Below are positions 1 to 55,911 of a DNA stretch of 63,781 bases, piece after piece. The first letter of the stretch is position 1. Each line of letters begins with the position of its first letter. A program made the translations under genes and the position numbers. The notes beneath the pieces are model-generated. The model worked only from the letters and a program-made list of their open reading frames with translations, was not told where the DNA came from and searched no databases. The stretch comes from a virus. Its lineage: Duplodnaviria; Caudoviricetes. The stretch is from positions 1 through 63,781 of IMG/VR virus record IMGVR_UViG_3300047409_000439; one strand, given 5' to 3'.

Positions 1-112
1 CGTCGATGCCTATTACATCATGCAGGAGGACCGCAAGCGCTCCTACAATCAAGAGCGGGCGCTGATTGCCTCCGCCGAACCGCACGACATCATCTCCTGG
101 TTCGCCGCCCAG
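1..112. repeat. Terminal direct repeat (circular assembly overlap), copy 1
   Basis: Bases 1-112 equal 63670-63781 except C110 vs G63779. Confidence 0.95.
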
Positions 113-727
113 AACAAGCATCTGGAGAAGCAGATCGCAGCGACGCTGGACTTGTACAGCGCTTCCAAGCCGGAAGGGGTCTGGGCACGAAGGCAATGCG
201 GTATCGGTCCCATCATCTCGGCGGGGCTGTTGGCGAACGTCAGTTTGTTCAAGCCCAACGGCGAGCGCGCGACAGCAGCCAACCTCTGGCGCTTTGCCGG
301 TATGGACCCGACGAGCAAATGGGAGAAGGGCAAGAAGCGGCCTTGGAACGCCTCGCTGAAAGTCTTGTGCTTCAAGATCGGGGACAGCTTCGTCAAGACC
401 TGCAACAACGAGGACAGCTACTACGGTCCCGTCTACAAGAAGCGCAAGGAGCTGGAGATCAGCAGGAACGAACAGTTCATGTTCAAGGAGCAAGCGGCTA
501 AAATTTTGGAGGTCAAGAAGATCGACAAGAAGACGGAAGCGTACAAAGCCTACATCCAGGGCAAGCTGCCCGACGCCCATATTCATGCCCGCGCCCGGCG
601 CTATGCCGTCAAGCTGTTCCTGTCGCACTACTTAGAGACAGCACAGCGGCTGCACGGCATCGAGCCCGCGATCCCATACATCATCGCGGTCGCCGGGCAC
701 GCCGATTACATTCCGCCGCCGCCCTGA
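1..727 (+). CDS. tasA: Nop-domain/IS110-like RNA-binding protein, TasA-like (3' part; gene starts at 63581 and crosses the junction, 271 aa total)
   Basis: IS110 C-terminal/Nop-like motifs GIGPIISAGLLA, LWRFAGMDP and HARARRYAVKLFLSH. No N-terminal DEDD RuvC domain and no HNH motif visible. Flanked on both sides by dual-repeat arrays. Confidence 0.85.
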   Translation, partial: VDAYYIMQEDRKRSYNQERALIASAEPHDIISWFAAQNKHLEKQIAATLDLYSASKPEGVWARRQCGIGPIISAGLLANVSLFKPNGERATAANLWRFAGMDPTSKWEKGKKRPWNASLKVLCFKIGDSFVKTCNNEDSYYGPVYKKRKELEISRNEQFMFKEQAAKILEVKKIDKKTEAYKAYIQGKLPDAHIHARARRYAVKLFLSHYLETAQRLHGIEPAIPYIIAVAGHADYIPPPP

Positions 728-1948
728 ACCAAAGAGATTGTGTCAAACCAAGTAGCTGGAGTGAACCAAAGTGAGAGTGTCAAACCAATGGATACGAGTG
801 AACCCCTACTGATGCGTCAAACCATATTGGCAGCGTGAACCAAGATGCCCGAGTCAAACCGAGAATCTTGCGTGAACCATTATCCTTGCGTCAAACCATA
901 TTGGCAGCGTGAACCAACATACGGGAGTTAAACCATATGTGCGGAGTGAACCAGTGCAACTGCGTCAAACCATGTTGTCCGCGTGAACCAAGTATCGCGT
1001 GTCAAACCTCTGAAGCGGAGTGAACCATAGCATACGTGTTAAACCGAGAATCTGGCGTGAACCAAAATGCGCGTGTCAAACCCAACAGCGCGGAGTGACC
1101 CATCCCCTCGGCGTCAAACCATGTCCTTAGCGGGAACCAGAATACGAGCGTCAAACCATAATCTCAGTGTGAACCATCTGATTGTGTCAAACCAATAGGA
1201 AGCGTGAACCAATGAGCAAGTGTCAACCCAAGTTGCGCGTGTGAACCAATTCAATTGCGTGAAACCATGTTTGACGAGTGAACCAGTGCTGGAGTGTCAA
1301 ACCAAATTGTGTGAGTGAACCATCGCGAGGATGTAAAACCAAAATACATGAGTGAACCATTGACGATGTGTCAACCCAAGAGACATGAGTGAACCGCCAT
1401 CGCAGCGTCAAACCAACATAATTGCGTGAGCCATCATCACAGCGTCAAACCATCATAGGAGTGCGAACCAAAATACATGTGTCCAACCAATCAGGAAGTG
1501 TGAACCAACCTATTTGCGTCAAACCAATCAATAAGCGTGAACCAACTTTCCTGTGTCAAACCAATCAGGAAGCGTGAACCAAGTTAAAGGAGTCAAACCA
1601 AGTGTACTGCGTGAACCAAACATGACGTGTCAAACCATGTTAACCGCGTGAGCCAAATTCGGTGCGTCAAACCAATGTTGTCGGCGCGAATCAACGATCC
1701 CCGCGTCAAACCAAAGTCCTTGTATGAGCCAAGATCACTGCGTCAAACCTAGAGCGCTGTGTGAACCATGTACAACGTGTCAAACCAAAGTACGAGTGTG
1801 AACCATAACTGGAGTGTCAAACCAAAGAACGAGTGTGAACCGCAATACCGGCGTTAAACCATAGAGGAGGAGTGAACCAAATCACCGGGGTCAAACCAAC
1901 CCTATCGCGTGAACCAAGATTGCCGTGTCAAACCAAATTGCTTGTGTG
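725..1948 (+). ncRNA. TIGR-like dual-repeat guide array 2 (33 units of ~37 nt)
   Basis: GTCAAACC cores at 742, 779, 816 ... 1890, 1927 (period 37, a few 36-39), alternating with GNGTGAACC and separated by variable ~9-nt spacers. Confidence 0.92.
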
Positions 1949-1962
1949 CAACGGAGACCATC

Positions 1963-3764: not shown

Positions 3765-4559
3765 ATGACGACAAGTGCAGCGGAATTGGAGTTGCTCAAA
3801 CTTGCCAAGCTCAAGCCCTATAAGCGCGGCGACCGGCAGGCCTTCCTGACCGATTTGCTCAACGGCTGCGACAAAACCCTCGACGCCATGAGCAAAATTG
3901 ACGCCAACAAGGCGTATGATGCGTTATCGGTCGAGGCCAAGGAATGGTATCAGAGCTGCATCGACCGCCAGGACGCCAATCCGGAGGCCGAACTTCCCGA
4001 GTTCGAACTGGAAACGGAAGACGAGGACGAGGAGGAAGATGAGCGGGCTGACGCTGACGATAACGCCGCTGACGGCGACGGGGGCGATGCTCTCGATATT
4101 CCCTTCAATGCCGATGACGACGAGCCGGTCGCCAAGAAGCGCCCCGGCGTGCTGCAAGGGGCCAAGGCCAAGCTCAAAGCCAAGCCCAAAGCCCCCGAGG
4201 CTCCGGGCCGTTCCCGCTTCGCGGCCAAAAAGCCGGAAGCGAAGCCCGAGGCAGCCCGTCCCCGAGGATGGGTAGGCAGAGAGATCGTCAAGGAGAAGCA
4301 GCAAGCCGGTAAGCCTGCTGCTGCCGCTGCCGCCAACGGCAAGAGCGCCCTCGGCAAGCGCGGCCAAGGCATGATCGAAGCGGCGATCCCGACGCTCTGG
4401 AAGCACCCGAGCGACTCGATCCCGAACCTGCGCCTGCGTCTGGAAAAGAAGAACATCATGCTGAGCGAGGTCACGATTGGACAAACCCGCCGCGATCTTA
4501 TCCGCAGCACCAAGTTCTTCGTCGCCGCAGGCTTGCTGCCGAAGAACCCGTTCGTCTGA
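3765..4559 (+). CDS. Hypothetical protein with acidic and Lys/Ala-rich regions
   Basis: AAGGA RBS; long ORF in operon orientation. Confidence 0.7.
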   Translation: MTTSAAELELLKLAKLKPYKRGDRQAFLTDLLNGCDKTLDAMSKIDANKAYDALSVEAKEWYQSCIDRQDANPEAELPEFELETEDEDEEEDERADADDNAADGDGGDALDIPFNADDDEPVAKKRPGVLQGAKAKLKAKPKAPEAPGRSRFAAKKPEAKPEAARPRGWVGREIVKEKQQAGKPAAAAAANGKSALGKRGQGMIEAAIPTLWKHPSDSIPNLRLRLEKKNIMLSEVTIGQTRRDLIRSTKFFVAAGLLPKNPFV

Positions 4560-4584
4560 GTTTCATCCGTATAACTCTCATCTG

Positions 4585-4617
4585 GAGCCCTCGTAAGCCG
4601 ACCGCTTACGGGGGCTC
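4585..4617 (+). terminator. Intergenic hairpin (terminator or processing stem)
   Basis: GAGCCCTCGTAAGC/GCTTACGGGGGCTC 14-bp stem with one G-U pair; no strong U-tract. Confidence 0.45.
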
Positions 4618-4646
4618 AAGTATGTTTAGGCTAAAGAGGATTTCCG

Positions 4647-5702
4647 ATGAAGCTGGACCGCGCGCCGTTCTTGCAGGCCGTGACGCTCTGCAAGCCTGCG
4701 ATAGCCGACAAATCGATCATTCAGGAACTGACCTTCCTGTTCTCGGACGGCGCGACCCTGACCGCGTACGACGATGTCATCGGCATCCAGGTTCCCTTCG
4801 CCAGCGGCCTCGTCGGCGGGGTCAAGGGCACGCTGCTGCTCGGCATGCTGGAGAACGCAACGGCCAAGCAGATCGAGATCGAACAGGACAACCCGGACGA
4901 GGTCTTGCTCAAATCCGGACGCTTCCGCGTCACGCTGGCGCTGCTGCCCGCCGACCGGGCGGTGTACCAGCTGCCCAAGGGCAAGGCCAAGCCCTTCCGC
5001 CTGTCCCTGAGCTTCTATGAGGCGCTCAAAGCCTGCCTGCCCGCTCTCAGCAGCAAGGCCGTGCTCCCGGACCAGCTCGGCATCTCCATCGCGCTGCATG
5101 ACAGCTTGCGGTTCTTCGCGACCGATTCGAATACCATGGCCTTCGCGACGATGAAGCACAATTGCGATCAATGGCCCTTCAAGCAAGGCTTGCGGGTCAT
5201 CCTGCCTGCTGCCTTCGCCAAGCAGCTGATCGACATCGGCACGGACGGGACGACCCTATATCTGACCGCGAACGAGGCTCTCGCCGAAACCGATAAAGGT
5301 ATCAAGCTGTTCTCCCGCCTGATCTTCAGCCCCAAGCCGCATGACTTTCAGCGTACGCTGGAGGCCGAGATGAAATCCGTCCAATTGTTCACCATCCCGC
5401 CCCGCCTGGAGACCATGCTGGACCGCGCCTTGCTGATCTTCGAGCATCACCCGGAGAAGCTGATCGCGGCCCAGCTCCAGATCAAGGACGGGACTTTGCG
5501 CGTAGCGGCGAAGACCAAGCATGAAGCATTGAACGACAGCACCAAACTGGACGAGATACCGCAGGACAAGACCGCGCTCGTCGTGCCCAAACGCCTCAAG
5601 CGCGTCCTGCCGCTGGCGGAGCGCATGGGCCTCACCGAAAACGGCGTTGTCCTGACCGGCAAGAACGTGATCTATCTGGTCGCCAATCATAGCGAGGCAT
5701 GA
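4647..5702 (+). CDS. DNA polymerase III beta-like sliding clamp
   Basis: 351 aa; beta-clamp-like N-terminus, FFATDS and VILPAAFAKQL segments; adjacent to polymerase and clamp loader. Confidence 0.7.
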   Translation: MKLDRAPFLQAVTLCKPAIADKSIIQELTFLFSDGATLTAYDDVIGIQVPFASGLVGGVKGTLLLGMLENATAKQIEIEQDNPDEVLLKSGRFRVTLALLPADRAVYQLPKGKAKPFRLSLSFYEALKACLPALSSKAVLPDQLGISIALHDSLRFFATDSNTMAFATMKHNCDQWPFKQGLRVILPAAFAKQLIDIGTDGTTLYLTANEALAETDKGIKLFSRLIFSPKPHDFQRTLEAEMKSVQLFTIPPRLETMLDRALLIFEHHPEKLIAAQLQIKDGTLRVAAKTKHEALNDSTKLDEIPQDKTALVVPKRLKRVLPLAERMGLTENGVVLTGKNVIYLVANHSEA

Positions 5703-5705
5703 CGC

Positions 5706-8270
5706 ATGGGCTGGTTCGCAAGCGGCATCGGAGCCGCACGGCGGCACAACAAGGAACCGTCACTGGCATTGCTGCATCGCTTGCAATGCCGCATCTGTCC
5801 CTTGGACAAGCTCAAGGAGAACCGGCATCCGCACATTCCGGCGCAAGGCGCGGAACGGCCTTTGATCTATGTGCTCGGCGAAGCGCCGGGCCGGGACGAG
5901 GACCGGGACAATCAGCAATTCATCGGCGCGTCCGGACAGGTCCTGCGCGAGGAATTGCCGGAGTATCTCTTGCCGCAAATCCGCTGGAACAACGTCGTAC
6001 GGACCCGGCCCAAGGATAACGAAGACCCGACCCCCATCGAGATCGAATGCTGCCGTCCTTCCGTCGCCGGAGACATCGCTGCGAGCAAGCCCAAGGCGAT
6101 CCTCGGCTTCGGCAACATCGCCTTGAAATGGGCAACGCAGCATTCCGGCATCATGACCTGGAGGGGCAGGAGAACGCCGGTCAACATCGACGGGCATGTC
6201 TGCTGGTATTATCCCATGCAGCATCCCGCCTCGATCCTGCACGAGCCGCACGAGGCCAAGAAGGACAGCCTGCATCGCGTCTTCAGATCGGACTTGGCCA
6301 AAGCCATCGCCGAGATCGACAGCCTGCCGGAGCCCGAAGTGCATGACCGCGAGGTTGCCGGATACGGCGTCGAATTCGCCTACGGCAACAAGGAAGGCGA
6401 TCTGCAACGGGTCGAAAGTCAGCTGCGCTGGGCCATGAAGCAGGAGGAGGTTGGGCTCGACCTTGAAACCAAGGGCTATCGTCCGTATGCGGAAGGGTCC
6501 AAGATATTGACCCTGGCCATCGGCTCCCGCGACAACAGTTTCTCCGTCGCGCTCGGGCATAAGCAGGCCAAATGGAGCCGCTCCGACCTCAAGCACTTGC
6601 GCGACTTGATCCGGGAATTCCTGCACAGCAAGGTGCGCAAGATCGTGCATTTCCTGCGCTTCGAAATGGAATGGCTCGCCGACCGCTATGGCTGGGACGT
6701 TGTCTATGCCGGGCGTTGGGGCGGCACGGAGACCCAAGCCGCCGTCATCGACGAGCGCTCCGGCGCGATGTCGCTGGATTTCCTCGTGCAGCAATATTTC
6801 GGCTTCGATCTGAAGGCCTTATCGCCGCTGAACAAGCTCCAGCTCGATAACGAGCCCATCGAGGACGTGCTCAGCTACAATGCGATGGACGCCAAATATC
6901 ATTATCTGCTCTGGCAGATGCAGAACGAGATCATCAAGCAGCGCAAGTTCGAGCATCTCTATGACGAGATGATCGCTCGCGTGCCGTCCTGCGTCCTGAC
7001 GCAATTACGCGGCATCCCGGTCAATCCGCAGATCGCGGCGACGCTGGCAACCAAATACGAGCAGCAGATCGAGGCCGCCCGCGCCGATGTCATGGCCGCG
7101 CCGCAGCTCAAGCAATTCCGCAGGCATTATGCAAAGGAAGGGATCAAGGAGTTCAAGCCGCTCTCCGACGATCATTGCGTCAAGCTATTCCGTCATGTCC
7201 TCGGCTACAATGAAGGCCTGTCGAAGCTGCCGGGGCGGGATCATAAATTCGCCGTCGATGAAGAAGTTCTGAAGCAGATCGGATTGCCCATCTGCTTTGA
7301 CATCCTGCGTCTGCGCAAGGCCTCGAAGCGCCTGAGCACCTATATCTACCGCAACAACGAGAAGAAGACGATTGTCTGGCCCGATGGGCTGCTGCATCCC
7401 AATTTCAATACCGTCAAGGTGCGGACCAAGCGCCTCTCCGCCGACGAGCCGAACTGCCAGAACATCCCCAAGCGCGACGAAGACGGCAAGGAAGTGCGCG
7501 CCCAGATCGAAGCTCCGGAAGGTCTGCTGCTTTGTTCCGCCGACCATGGCCAGATACAGGCACGCGGCATCGCCATGTCCTCCCAAGATAAACAATTCTG
7601 TCAAGCCTTATGGGAACGCTTCGACGTGCATGGCTATTGGGCCGAACGCATTGCCAAGGCCTATCCGCGCCGCGTCGATAACGTCACCAATTTCAAGGAC
7701 GAGGCGGGCAAGAAGGTGCTGAAGAAATTCCGTGCCGACATCAAGAACCAATGGACCTTTCCGCTGTTCTTCGGAGCCCGCATGGAGCGGGTCGCCGAGG
7801 AACTGCATATTCCGGTCAATGTCATAGAGCCGGAATTCAACGCCTTCGAAAAGATGTTCGCCGGGGTCTTTCAATGGCACGAGGAGTTGATCAGATTCTA
7901 CAACCGCAATGGCTACGTCGAAGACCTCTTTGGCTTCCGCCATCATGCGCCCCTATCCAAGAACGAGATCATCAATTCGCCCATTCAAAGTCTGGAGGCG
8001 CTGTTCGTCATGCGCGGCATGAACCAGCTCTCGCGTCATGCCGCGCAAACCGGGGATTGGCATTATCAGCCCATCGCGCAAATCCATGACGACCTGACTT
8101 TCCTCTTGCCAGAGAGTAACATCGATGTATATGTACAGAAGATCGTCACCGAGATGTTGAACGTGACCTTTCCCTGGGTCAACATCCCGATGACCTTGGA
8201 AGTCGCGATAGGCCCGAACCTGTTGGACATGAAAGAATGTCTGGTTGCCTCAAGCGACGATTGGAAGTAA
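5706..8270 (+). CDS. polA: Family A DNA polymerase with N-terminal uracil-DNA glycosylase-like domain and 3'-5' exonuclease
   Basis: UDG family 4 motifs GEAPGRDED..FIGASG and HPASILH; exonuclease DLET and YNAMDA; polymerase RLSADEPNCQNIP, ADHGQIQAR, INSPIQS, IHDDL. Confidence 0.92.
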   Translation: MGWFASGIGAARRHNKEPSLALLHRLQCRICPLDKLKENRHPHIPAQGAERPLIYVLGEAPGRDEDRDNQQFIGASGQVLREELPEYLLPQIRWNNVVRTRPKDNEDPTPIEIECCRPSVAGDIAASKPKAILGFGNIALKWATQHSGIMTWRGRRTPVNIDGHVCWYYPMQHPASILHEPHEAKKDSLHRVFRSDLAKAIAEIDSLPEPEVHDREVAGYGVEFAYGNKEGDLQRVESQLRWAMKQEEVGLDLETKGYRPYAEGSKILTLAIGSRDNSFSVALGHKQAKWSRSDLKHLRDLIREFLHSKVRKIVHFLRFEMEWLADRYGWDVVYAGRWGGTETQAAVIDERSGAMSLDFLVQQYFGFDLKALSPLNKLQLDNEPIEDVLSYNAMDAKYHYLLWQMQNEIIKQRKFEHLYDEMIARVPSCVLTQLRGIPVNPQIAATLATKYEQQIEAARADVMAAPQLKQFRRHYAKEGIKEFKPLSDDHCVKLFRHVLGYNEGLSKLPGRDHKFAVDEEVLKQIGLPICFDILRLRKASKRLSTYIYRNNEKKTIVWPDGLLHPNFNTVKVRTKRLSADEPNCQNIPKRDEDGKEVRAQIEAPEGLLLCSADHGQIQARGIAMSSQDKQFCQALWERFDVHGYWAERIAKAYPRRVDNVTNFKDEAGKKVLKKFRADIKNQWTFPLFFGARMERVAEELHIPVNVIEPEFNAFEKMFAGVFQWHEELIRFYNRNGYVEDLFGFRHHAPLSKNEIINSPIQSLEALFVMRGMNQLSRHAAQTGDWHYQPIAQIHDDLTFLLPESNIDVYVQKIVTEMLNVTFPWVNIPMTLEVAIGPNLLDMKECLVASSDDWK

Positions 8271-25784: not shown

Positions 25785-26878
25785 AACCGGGGAACTCCCG
25801 TAACGAGTTGCGAGGACGGCGAGATGTTGATCATGCCTTGACCTGGAGCAGAGGGCGGCGGCTGGCCCGCAGGCGCTCCCGTCACAGGCGCGGAAGCAAC
25901 AGGCCGCAGCTTCGCGACCGGCATCCCGCCTTGCATATTGGAAAGCTGCTGGTTCATGATCGCGGCGTTGGCGCGATTGGACTCGGCTTGCGAATTCAGT
26001 TGATTGATCTGCGCGGGCGTAACCGGATTGAACATGCCTTGAACCAAGGACGATCCGGCCTGGATCAAGCCATACGAGACCATCTGGTTCTCATGCGCGA
26101 ACGATCCGATATCCTTGAGCATGCCCTGGAAGCCGCCAACCGGGATTTCCGCCAGCTTGGGGGCTCCCGTAACGCCCGGCGGATTGGTCGATATTCTCAA
26201 TTTTGTAGGATCGACGGGAAAGTCTGAACCCGTCGGCCCGGAAGGCGTCTCCGATGGTATGACCGGGTCCATCTGCGTCGCGTCAACGATAGGAACACCT
26301 TTCGGCGTTGTCCGACTGAAGCCCTTAGTGAAATTATCGCCTGACGGCGGTACGCCTCCGCCGAAACCGCCGCCGACATCACTCATGCTGGCATCATTTG
26401 CGGCAAGCTGTATTTCTTCAGGCGGGTTCGGAACCGGAGCAGGCGTATTGACGGAAACCTCGCCCAGCGGCGAGACCTCGACCGGCTGGACCGCCAAGGC
26501 GTCGAGCATGTCAGTGCTGGCCTGTCCCGTTCCGATATCGCCCAGGACTTTAGGCGTGATATCGACGCTGCTCGGTATCTGCGTCGCCAGCTCCGCTTCG
26601 GACGGTCCGAACATGGAGGCATTGCCATTGATCAAACCCGCCGTTGACGCCAGCCCGCCGATGGCCCCGATGCCAGCCATGACCAGCCCCGCCGTCTGCA
26701 AGTTCTTGTCACGGGCAACGACGCCGATGGTGCCGACAGTCGCGCCGACGGCGGCGACGAGCGTCATGGCTTCCGCGACGTTCAACGCCATGAAGCCGCC
26801 CGCCATCAACGTGCTGAGCGCCCCGCCTGCCGCGCCCCAGGCAATCGCCGTACCGATAAGCGGAATGACTACGGGCAT
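25781..26878 (-). CDS. Internal virion protein with hydrophobic N-terminus
   Basis: Gly/Ala-rich membrane-like N-terminus typical of podovirus ejection proteins. Confidence 0.65.
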   Translation of the reverse strand: MPVVIPLIGTAIAWGAAGGALSTLMAGGFMALNVAEAMTLVAAVGATVGTIGVVARDKNLQTAGLVMAGIGAIGGLASTAGLINGNASMFGPSEAELATQIPSSVDITPKVLGDIGTGQASTDMLDALAVQPVEVSPLGEVSVNTPAPVPNPPEEIQLAANDASMSDVGGGFGGGVPPSGDNFTKGFSRTTPKGVPIVDATQMDPVIPSETPSGPTGSDFPVDPTKLRISTNPPGVTGAPKLAEIPVGGFQGMLKDIGSFAHENQMVSYGLIQAGSSLVQGMFNPVTPAQINQLNSQAESNRANAAIMNQQLSNMQGGMPVAKLRPVASAPVTGAPAGQPPPSAPGQGMINISPSSQLVTGVPRL

Positions 26879-27237
26879 GGTTTGACCTCATCGATACGAT
26901 AGAAGATGTCATGCTCGTCTTCATGCGTCTTATAGAAGCCGAGCTTCTCGTTGAAGCGCTGTTGGCGCTTGTCCTCGACCGGCGTTCTGGTGCAGGCGTA
27001 GCCATGCTGCTTGATGAACGCGCTCAAGGTCTCGCGGATGAATTTCAGGGACATCGGTTGTTTGGTTCCCAGACTGAGAAAATGAAACTCCGGTCCCTTG
27101 GCCAGGAACACGAAGGCGGGCGTGACCAGAACCTGATCGTATTGCTGAAGACCGGCGGCGAACTGCTCCCGGTCGATGAAGACATTCGGCTCCGCCTGAC
27201 GCCAAAGCGCTTCGATCAGAGCTTCGTCCAATATCAT
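26869..27237 (-). CDS. GNAT-like protein of the virion module
   Basis: RFNEKLGF resembles GNAT motif B; such genes sit among podovirus core genes. Confidence 0.55.
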   Translation of the reverse strand: MILDEALIEALWRQAEPNVFIDREQFAAGLQQYDQVLVTPAFVFLAKGPEFHFLSLGTKQPMSLKFIRETLSAFIKQHGYACTRTPVEDKRQQRFNEKLGFYKTHEDEHDIFYRIDEVKPCP

Positions 27238-54358: not shown

Positions 54359-55911
54359 ACATCCATCCCGATTCGATCCGCGAGTTCCTGAGCCGGACCA
54401 GGGACGCCCATGACGGGCTGAAACGCCTGCCGGAAGCCCGCCTGCGGCAGGAACTGGCCGACCTGGGCTTTGCCCCCGCCCTGCGGGCAAGGCCGCTCCT
54501 GACCCATCAGACGGTCTGCGCGCTGCTCGGGATCGCCTATCCCGCCTTTGCCTTCTGGCTCGACATGGGGCTGGGCAAAAGCAGGCTGGCCCTGGAGCTG
54601 ATCCGCTACCATGTCCAGAAGGGCGAAATGAAGGGGGCGCTGATCCTGGTCAAGTCCGACGCGGCGGTCATCACCTGGGAAGACCAGATCGCGGAATGGG
54701 GCTTCGATCTGCCCTACCGGCTGCTGCTCAAGGGGACCTCGTCGAAGGACAAATGGACGGCCCTGGAAGGGTTCGAGGAAGGCGTCATCATCGGCTCCTA
54801 TGGCGGGGTCACGCGCATGCTGACCAAGCCCGGCCTGTCTCCCAAGGGCAAAGGCAAGCTGGTCTTCGACGAGCCCGCGCTCAAGCGCATGCGGGGCCTC
54901 GTCCAATGCCTCGTACCCGACGAAGCGACGATGCTGGCCAACGCCGATTCGCTGATCTCGCGCCTGTTCCATCAATTGCGCAAATCGGCTCCCTTCTGCT
55001 GGCAGCTCGCCGGTATCCCGTTCGGGCGCGATCCCGCCATGATGCACCGGCAGCTGTACTTGATCGACCAAGGCGAAACCCTGGGCGATACGCTGGGGCT
55101 GTTCCGCGCCGCGTTCTGCAAGGAGACCAAGAACCGTTTCGGCTTTTCCGAATATGTCTTCGACCGGACGAAGGAACAGCTGCTGCATAAGATCGTCAAG
55201 CATCGCAGCATCTCATACAGCGAGGCGGAATGCCTCGACCTGCCGAGGGTCGTGCAAGCCCGCGCCCGCGTCCATCTCCCGGACGAGGCGACGGCGTATT
55301 ATGCCCGCTTCATCGCCGAGATACGCAAGAGCAAAGCCTCGTTCCAAGTACGCAAGAACGCCTTCATCCGGATGCGTCAGATCAGCTCGGGTTATGTCGG
55401 CTTCACGGACGATCTGACCGGCGAGCGCTGTGAAATCGAATTCGCCGTCAATCCCAAATTGGAGCGCTTGCTGGAGCTGGTCGAGCAAGTCCCCGAGGAC
55501 CGCAAGTTCGTCATCTTCTGCGAGTACATCCATTCCGGGCGCTTGATCTGCGACGGCTTGACCAAGCTCGGCATCGGGCATGACTGGCTCTATGGCGGCA
55601 CGGCGGATTTGCGCCAGCTCAACGAGCGCTTCAATCATGATCCGAAATGCCGGGGCCTCGTCATCGGCCATAAGGTCGGGGCATATTCGCTGAATCTTCA
55701 GGCGGCGAACTATGTCTTTATCTTCGAAGCGCCGGTCTCGCCCATCGACGACCGGCAAATGCGCAAGCGGGTCGCGCGCCAGGGCCAGACCCGCGTCGTC
55801 TTCGAAACCGATCTGCTCTGCATTGGCACCGTCGATGACCGCATCCTGGCGTTTCATCGCCAAGGCCAATCGCTGTTCGACGCGATCATCAAGGACCCCG
55901 GCATTCTATGA
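54355..55911 (+). CDS. SNF2-family helicase
   Basis: DMGLGKS, PDEA, MRQISSG, NPKLERL, SLNLQAAN, RVARQGQ. Confidence 0.88.
   Translation: MNIHPDSIREFLSRTRDAHDGLKRLPEARLRQELADLGFAPALRARPLLTHQTVCALLGIAYPAFAFWLDMGLGKSRLALELIRYHVQKGEMKGALILVKSDAAVITWEDQIAEWGFDLPYRLLLKGTSSKDKWTALEGFEEGVIIGSYGGVTRMLTKPGLSPKGKGKLVFDEPALKRMRGLVQCLVPDEATMLANADSLISRLFHQLRKSAPFCWQLAGIPFGRDPAMMHRQLYLIDQGETLGDTLGLFRAAFCKETKNRFGFSEYVFDRTKEQLLHKIVKHRSISYSEAECLDLPRVVQARARVHLPDEATAYYARFIAEIRKSKASFQVRKNAFIRMRQISSGYVGFTDDLTGERCEIEFAVNPKLERLLELVEQVPEDRKFVIFCEYIHSGRLICDGLTKLGIGHDWLYGGTADLRQLNERFNHDPKCRGLVIGHKVGAYSLNLQAANYVFIFEAPVSPIDDRQMRKRVARQGQTRVVFETDLLCIGTVDDRILAFHRQGQSLFDAIIKDPGIL

Follow-up and report, generated by a model that had tools for sequence, protein, structure and literature searches.

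In TIGR arrays each unit carries two short half-spacers, and a locus in which the same half recurs beside different partners raises the question of how such arrays change, a question given added interest by the statement of Xu et al. (2026, bioRxiv 10.64898/2026.09.09.750476) that the route of new spacer acquisition is unknown. The locus studied here lies in a complete soil-phage entry of 63,781 bases (IMG/VR record IMGVR_UViG_3300047409_000439; the whole of this stretch is called the window below), where two TIGR arrays flank a tas gene, one on each side and all on the same strand. The downstream array (724..1953, + strand, parsed from the sequence) holds 33 units of 37 nt, and the upstream array (63053..63579, + strand) holds 14 units with the same repeats. 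Each unit consists of an edge repeat (GNGTGAACCA), an 8-nt spacer A, a loop repeat (GNGTCAAACCA) and an 8-nt spacer B, and should, by prediction, give one tigRNA with two 8-nt guide halves. An initial annotation, made without database searches, had correctly recognized a split-guide array in the downstream region and had listed words that recur there beside different neighbours, every one of which we found in place; it attributed them to recombination between the short repeats, with shuffling of half-spacers, or to guides aimed at a family of related sites. Our own reading is that the duplicates are probably physical copies of single spacer-B segments, a minor by-product in arrays where whole-unit turnover at the edge repeats dominates.

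Duplicated half-spacers in the phage arrays

All of the duplicated segments lie on the + strand of the downstream array. Units 3 and 5 carry the same spacer-B segment (824..834 and 898..908, both ATATTGGCA), the copy in unit 5 agreeing with unit 3 at 11 of 11 letters, and the identity between the two units spans 31 nt, running through both flanking repeats. Further pairs of spacer-B segments agree at 10 of 11 letters: units 4 and 9 (861..871 and 1046..1056; GAGAATCTT/G), which both start with G, a letter rare at that position; units 21 and 23 (1489..1499 and 1563..1573; AATCAGGAA in each); and units 29 and 30 (1787..1797 and 1824..1834; the pair AAAGTACGA/AAAGAACGA). The 10-nt spacer-B segment of unit 13 (1194..1203; AATAGGAA) is the form of units 21 and 23 minus one C, and the segments of units 7 (972..982) and 26 (12 nt, 1674..1685) share ATGTTGTC, which begins at 1675 in the latter, with a shift of one base. 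Finally, the spacer-B segment of unit 17 (1341..1351; AAAATACAT) agrees at 10 of 11 letters with spacer A of unit 21 (1470-1480). Unit 21 itself (1463-1499) has degenerate forms of both repeats (GCGAACC and GTCCAACC), and both of its halves resemble others, its A half that of unit 17 B and its B half that of unit 23 B.

Statistically, these matches were compared with a null in which columns were permuted separately for each spacer class, so that the 5' A bias and all other positional biases are retained; the 11-nt comparison covers those inter-repeat segments with a length of 11 nt (89 of 94). Pairs identical at 10 or more of 11 letters number five, where 0.85 would be expected (one of 2000 permutations reached five), so that the reuse noticed initially stands above chance with the A bias preserved. 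Split by class, there are four B-B pairs against 0.2 expected (0 of 2000 permutations), no A-A pairs against 0.25, and one A-B pair against 0.41 (674 of 2000); the last is AAAATACAT, whose occurrence after both repeat types (1341 and 1470) had been counted as reuse and is a chance-level match. Exact 8-nt cores, taken over both arrays, form three pairs against 0.13 expected (0 of 2000), and shared words of at least 8 letters form five pairs in the downstream array against 0.44 (0 of 1000). With up to 0, 1, 2 and 3 mismatches allowed, B-B pairs number 2, 4, 16 and 55 against 0.05, 0.82, 7.7 and 43.7 expected, while A-A similarity shows no excess at any of these levels, and no internal duplicates were found among the 14 units of the upstream array. 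The half-spacers next to the two members of a duplicate are no more alike than background pairs (4-7 of 8 letters differ), in agreement with the earlier remark that the neighbours change each time. Spatially, five B-B pairs lie 1, 2, 2, 5 and 19 units apart, nearer to each other than random pairs, with a mean distance quantile of 0.256 (P = 0.03).

Beyond these close matches, a loose family of spacer-B segments of the form ATCA..GGA (AATAGGAAGC, ATCATAGGAGT, AATCAGGAAGT, AATCAATAAGC, AATCAGGAAGC and AATCATGGAGT, at 1194, 1452, 1489, 1526, 1563 and 63301, respectively) adds to the B-B excess at two and three mismatches, and may represent either older copies or a shared target motif.

Sequencing data from independent studies bear on the same segments. 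The stretch is present in nine soil metagenome runs (none recorded as RNA), of which four were compared in detail. Depth in the likely source run reaches 29 over the 31-letter word (813-843) that units 3 and 5 have in common and 12.7 in its flanks, as expected of a word present twice. No differences appear in contigs from a second study, which span 500-854, 1115-1367 and 1396-2200, or in those of a further study, which span 1488-1638 and 1671-1821; given the double depth and the identical contigs from two other studies, the duplicates are not assembly errors. Variants at the read level, which the initial annotation had pointed to as informative, exist as well: X3, a related strain sampled at a depth of about 2.6 in another study, carries an additional 37-nt unit between units 22 and 23, which includes seven letters without a match in the window, and its unit 21 differs by 1484 C>A, the loss of one base at 1492 and 1499 T>C, all within 16 nt, changes that turn the loop repeat (canonical there) and spacer B of this unit into those of unit 13.

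Duplicates and unit inheritance in related arrays

Relatives of the Tas protein at 44-58% identity are common in viral contigs, with 7 recovered by a single-protein search and 335 by a profile, and we analysed the best 80 of the 335 profile matches. A chain parser recovered arrays in 78 of the 80 loci, with about 2,400 clean 8-nt half-spacers, and the removal of ten redundant loci left 68 arrays for counting. No close relative with the window's own repeats was found in the viral and metagenome contigs searched, from which records near the window may be missing; the exact repeat pair occurs at 1 viral-contig and 73 metagenome-contig loci, with a single match at each and none of them an array, and the match at one of these (L011) falls in a coding region.

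Across the 68 arrays, same-class exact duplicates number 14 for spacer A against 0.19 expected and 10 for spacer B against 0.33, and at no more than one mismatch the counts rise to 36 against 5.1 and 25 against 5.8, respectively, whereas cross-class exact duplicates number 0 against 0.38 expected; these null sums, which carry no correction for shared ancestry, are conservative. Two variants of the copying idea were rejected on these grounds. A copying bias specific to spacer B, seen in the window, is absent in the relatives, which have no fewer A than B duplicates, and copying between classes is not supported, with A-B matches at chance in the window and no cross-class excess in the relatives.

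The relatives also indicate what travels with a duplicated half. Among 61 duplicate rows, 34 have an unrelated partner (at least 4 mismatches) and 17 the same partner (at most 2). The 15 half-only exact duplicates (13 from relatives, 2 from the window) lie close together within their arrays, with a mean distance quantile of 0.294 (p = 0.006), and their flanking repeats differ by 1.6 mismatches compared with 3.4 in background pairs (p = 0.0018). In three of four duplicates for which related arrays were available, the relatives have just one of the two units, with the shared half present once, so that the second unit is derived, a later addition. A unit of L146 combines the A half and loop variant of one unit with the B half of another, and is absent in L152, L143 and L145. 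Recombination at the short repeats, as initially suggested, is thus supported, by duplicates that are local, class-bound, accompanied by flanking variants and, in three of four cases, derived.

At the level of whole arrays, inheritance follows a different unit. Many of the arrays have part of their half-spacers in common, and in a junction test over 10 array pairs, the neighbours of every exactly shared half-spacer were compared. Of 101 partners across the loop repeat, 99 were kept (at most 2 mismatches), none was intermediate and 2 were unrelated (at least 4 mismatches); across the edge repeat, by the same thresholds, the neighbour was kept in 68 of 115 cases, with 6 intermediate and 41 unrelated (Fisher p = 1.2e-11 for loop versus edge junctions, with the same direction in 10 of 10 array pairs). 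Over 22 array pairs, counted as unique events, the across-loop partner had no more than 2 mismatches in 186 of 194 cases, and the across-edge neighbour at least 4 in 145 of 297. Within the edge repeat itself, variants in the related arrays L086-L165 are inherited in a split fashion, positions 1, 3 and 4 going with the upstream unit and positions 7, 9 and 10 with the downstream unit, which places breakpoints inside the edge repeat. Alignments of related arrays further show whole-unit insertions and deletions, single units copied to new places, and spacer changes of one or two letters. The main unit of array change is therefore the whole tigRNA. For the idea that arrays diversify by shuffling half-spacers, this means that copying of halves does occur, and recurs in the arrays of related phages, but that it is not the general route of diversification, since loop partners are kept in 99 of 101 cases and whole units move, with edge junctions often broken (41 of 115). 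Mature tigRNAs, as published, are cut midway through the edge repeat, and the moving unit has the same bounds.

Some of the related loci have arrays of uncommon form. In L004 / L111 (3760-6040) an array of about 64 units far exceeds the usual 5-15, and L008 (4100-6050) has three small arrays interspersed with protein genes. At L120 (3548-5192), a parser chain of 92 half-repeats runs through the coordinates of tas (4001-4714), which may be a parser artefact or reflect repeat units within the tas gene; units inside tas are reported for some loci by Xu et al. (2026, bioRxiv 10.64898/2026.09.09.750476).

Proposed copying of single halves and competing explanations

We regard the duplicates as physical copies, and not as repeated captures of the same half, because they are class-bound, carry flanking-repeat variants, are local and, where polarity can be read, are derived. 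Mechanistically, a short tract would be copied, in register, between nearby units inside the array, by misaligned pairing of two array copies during replication or recombination, or by template switching. The copied tract would start in one flanking repeat and stop in the other, and every copy would create a chimeric guide that joins an old B half to an unrelated A half. Such copies would mostly be a recent by-product, and over longer times whole A-loop-B units would be gained, lost and exchanged, through breakpoints inside edge repeats, together with point changes in spacers. What we infer from these patterns is how the copying takes place at the molecular level and why breakpoints in the loop seldom last. 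Chimeric guides hardly ever show up among the differences between related arrays, although edge junctions break freely, which means either that loop breakpoints rarely arise or that chimeras are lost, and if they are lost, then guide pairs would be under selection.

Several observations weigh against this reading. The window alone amounts to about five events, and its restriction to spacer B may be chance, as the relatives lack it. On the 8-nt core, pairs with no more than one mismatch number 5 against 3.0 expected (376 of 2000 permutations), which is not above chance, so that one-mismatch pairs count only together with their flanking letters. Two large related arrays, L004 (112 halves) and L010, show no duplicate excess. 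Within arrays, half-only duplicates outnumber whole-unit ones (34 against 17 rows), a majority hard to square with rare loop breakpoints, unless duplicates of whole units vanish faster. A copy of 8-28 nt needs two switches within repeats of 10-11 nt, an undocumented reaction for such arrays, and no RecT- or ERF-type recombinase was found in the phage, so that the copying enzyme would be another protein or host-derived. The X3 evidence is one contig at a depth of 2.6, and with 4 mismatches in the X3 piece that contains the extra unit, the B half of this unit is perhaps an inexact copy. In addition, the parser used for the relatives' arrays was custom-made and checked by eye at only a few loci, and the general rules drawn here rest on this parser and on metagenome-assembled contigs of one Tas clade.

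An alternative that we consider unlikely is that a whole unit was duplicated, in tandem or nearby, and that one of its halves was then replaced or quickly changed by spacer turnover. Whole-unit duplicates do exist in the relatives (the 17 of 61 rows whose partners differ by at most 2 mismatches, e.g., in L108, L131, L145 and L152), they are local as well (mean distance quantile 0.254), and spacers do drift between related arrays, where across-loop partners carry one mismatch in 29 of 194 cases and two in 11 of 194. In half-only duplicates, however, an exact copied half stands beside a partner that differs at 3-7 of 8 letters, in the unrelated range (background mean 5.86), and intermediates between whole-unit and half-only duplicates are few. 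Between related arrays, moreover, the swap of one half with the partner kept is rare (2 of 101), and in one of the two cases the incoming half nearly repeats a half found in another unit.

A second alternative, of slightly lower probability still, takes the modules of array building to coincide with the mature tigRNA (spacer A, loop and spacer B between two half edge repeats), and would have a dedicated machinery insert them at edge repeats by a ribonucleoprotein- or RNA-templated route, amounting to guide acquisition without Cas1 as opposed to plain homologous recombination whose products selection sorts; the half-spacer copies would then be rare slips of that machinery.

We give a little less credence again to a functional origin, in which shared halves were kept or recaptured because the guides are aimed at a family of sites with a common half-site, the other explanation offered initially. 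The B halves of the window are over-similar even at two and three mismatches, as the ATCA..GGA family illustrates, and TasR can act when one half of a site matches perfectly and the other at 6 of 9 positions (PMC12045711), both of which such a scenario would accommodate. Yet the partner halves of the duplicates are unrelated, and the duplicates are local in the array and carry flanking-repeat variants along with them. Cross-class duplicates are missing from the relatives (0 against 24 same-class), although A and B spacers can be swapped and still function in vitro (PMC12045711). Furthermore, a search of the phage's own genome with the real A/B pairings, and with alternative pairings that join each B to the next unit's A, gave no excess over shuffled pairings (both orientations, gaps of 0-2, no more than 2 mismatches, 20 shuffled sets); at 2 mismatches, for example, 3 and 6 matches were obtained compared with 3.95 and 4.15 for shuffled sets, and the single match at 1 mismatch, at 55042, falls within the decoy rate.

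That the duplicates are chance matches of A-rich short words or metagenome assembly errors is highly improbable and already largely refuted: one-mismatch pairs of the 8-nt core and the A/B match do lie at chance, and the break in the Logan contig from the likely source run falls precisely on the 31-nt repeat, but the exact and 10-of-11 matches surpass all or nearly all permutations, the 31-letter word is at double depth, the contigs of the two other studies are identical over units 21-23 and 29-30, and independent related arrays show the same excess.

The tas locus and its place among TIGR-Tas systems

Physically, the tas gene is split across the ends of the record. The 112 bases at 63670-63781 are 99% identical to those at 1-112, an overlap that makes the genome circular or terminally redundant, and because the end duplicates the beginning, the reading of tas continues at base 1; the record is nevertheless assigned a linear class despite this overlap. 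The 5' part of the gene (63581..63781, + strand, with the ATG at 63581, as read from the open reading frame and the end overlap) and the 3' part (1..727, + strand, with a TGA stop at 725-727) together encode a solo Nop-domain protein of 271 amino acids of the TasA type. In a phmmer comparison with the PDB, this protein matches TasR (9mty_A, E = 1.2e-14), whose model 9MTY comes from Faure et al. (2025, PMC12045711), as well as TasH chains (21kl and others, E = 2.8e-7). Residues 36-240 align with 116-320 of TasR and 116-302 of TasH, i.e., with the C-terminal (Nop) halves only, which leaves no space for an N-terminal nuclease in a protein of 271 amino acids, and a Pfam scan of the Tas fragment found no significant family and no nuclease domain. 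By tblastn, an experimentally studied system, that of Salicola phage CGphi29, has a tas gene matching at E = 1e-6, with 25.7% identity in the Nop part across 72% of the query. Near the C terminus, GHADYIPPP aligns with GHVDYIKPP of TasR; a Tyr/His loop in this part of Tas proteins is described by Xu et al. (2026, bioRxiv 10.64898/2026.09.09.750476). Judged by its sequence, the protein is of the TasA type, a Nop domain without HNH or RuvC nuclease; TasA proteins are RNA-guided repressors according to the same authors, and we assume this role here.

The unit pattern of the arrays fits 44 of the 47 units at no more than 3 mismatches, and nowhere else in the window. The downstream array opens with a 5'-cut edge repeat (CTGAACC) at 724, inside the tas stop codon, and closes with a degenerate edge repeat (GTGCAACG) at 1946-1953, while the upstream array opens with CCGAACC at 63053 and closes with GTGTTAC at 63573. 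TIGR arrays are described as opening with a 5'-cut and closing with a 3'-cut edge repeat (PMC12045711), and because cut repeats of the GTGAACC type bound both arrays, we assign this type as edge and GTCAAACCA as loop. Both kinds of repeat are 10-11 nt long and end in CCA. The dual-repeat rule (PMC12045711) has box C, CCA, at the end of each repeat and box D, UG, at its start; the UG is present in the edge repeat (GUGAACCA), and the loop repeat (GUCAAACCA) has no UG at the matching place. No rho-independent terminator was found on the + strand of 1-2300, where the next open reading frame starts at 1963, 10 nt past the array; a terminator after the array is described as typical, not defining (PMC12045711). 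An Rfam scan of 1-2200 returned only a chance microRNA match (E = 0.49).

The arrays are tightly packed against neighbouring genes, the upstream one beginning at the stop codon of the open reading frame at 62102-63064. Its last degenerate edge repeat (GGAGTGTTAC) provides a GGAG about 8 nt 5' of the tas ATG, and the last degenerate edge repeat of the downstream array (..CAACGGAGACC) likewise provides a GGAG for the small open reading frame at 1963. Neither a promoter-like nor a terminator-like site was seen on the + strand between the arrays and the adjoining genes (63040-63583 and 1946-1965). Two lone exact loop repeats (GTCAAACCA) occur outside the arrays, at 60928-60936 (+) and 26878-26886 (-), against 0.31 expected window-wide; ACGGAG and then an ATG (at about 60952) come after the copy at 60928, an arrangement resembling the end of the upstream array, and this copy heads the gene block that leads to the arrays. 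Elsewhere in the genome, a family-A DNA polymerase is encoded at 5706-8270; its identity to polymerases of Vibrio siphophages is about 34%, and a GEAPG motif lies in its N-terminal extension, which presumably resembles uracil-DNA glycosylase family 4.

The locus belongs to the dual-repeat TIGR-Tas family, TasA subclass. It shares with the dual-repeat TIGR-TasA systems (PMC12045711; bioRxiv 10.64898/2026.09.09.750476) a solo Nop protein, two alternating repeats ending in CCA, two short spacers per unit of about 36 nt, arrays flanking tas, phage origin and the lack of adaptation genes. It differs from them in its 37-nt unit (the loop repeat being one base longer) with 8-nt spacers, in its total of 47 units compared with 'most often 5 to 15' (PMC12045711), in a loop repeat that starts with GUC instead of UG, and in an array without the typical terminator. 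The experimentally studied SpTIGR-TasH of Salicola phage CGphi29 is also similar, with 8-nt spacers, 10-nt repeats, the same layout, and repeats of the edge ..GCGAGCCA and loop ..GACAACCA types as in the window, but its TasH bears an N-terminal HNH nuclease that the window protein lacks, and its array of about 12 units closes with a terminator hairpin that the window array does not have.

Direct repeats in CRISPR arrays permit the deletion, duplication and exchange of units, and duplicated spacers mark such events (cited in PMC12045711). The repeats of the window are of a different kind, 10-11 nt long and of two types, with bipartite guides and no Cas1. Chimeric guides result from breakpoints in the loop repeat, and breakpoints are strongly biased to one kind of repeat, unlike in CRISPR arrays. 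Identity with CRISPR-Cas itself was rejected on the lack of a Cas1 match and on repeats of 10-11 nt and two kinds, as opposed to one kind of about 25-36 nt or more. The earlier statement that no Cas1-like gene is present holds: Cas1 was not found in the phage record by a search that matched 7 of 14 control genomes, and a reverse transcriptase was not found in the record either.

To place these results in the literature, duplicated half-spacers and unit-level inheritance are not described in the main-text portions consulted of PMC12045711, Xu et al. (2026) and Guan et al. (2026); the supplements of PMC12045711 (fig. S4, table S1) and TIGRSafari may show duplicated spacers. Among the papers listed by full-text searches on tigRNA duplication, recombination and evolution, none was on TIGR array dynamics. 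The locus is a new TIGR-TasA member and adds new information on how such arrays change, in the form of testable rules: A-loop-B blocks are inherited together, breakpoints fall in edge repeats, spacers drift by point changes, and halves are occasionally copied nearby, with the resulting chimeras rarely persisting. If selection removes chimeric guides, then most guide pairs in long arrays must have real targets; if chimeric guides simply seldom arise, then the mechanism is specific to edge repeats. Either answer narrows the search for how guides are gained in TIGR arrays.

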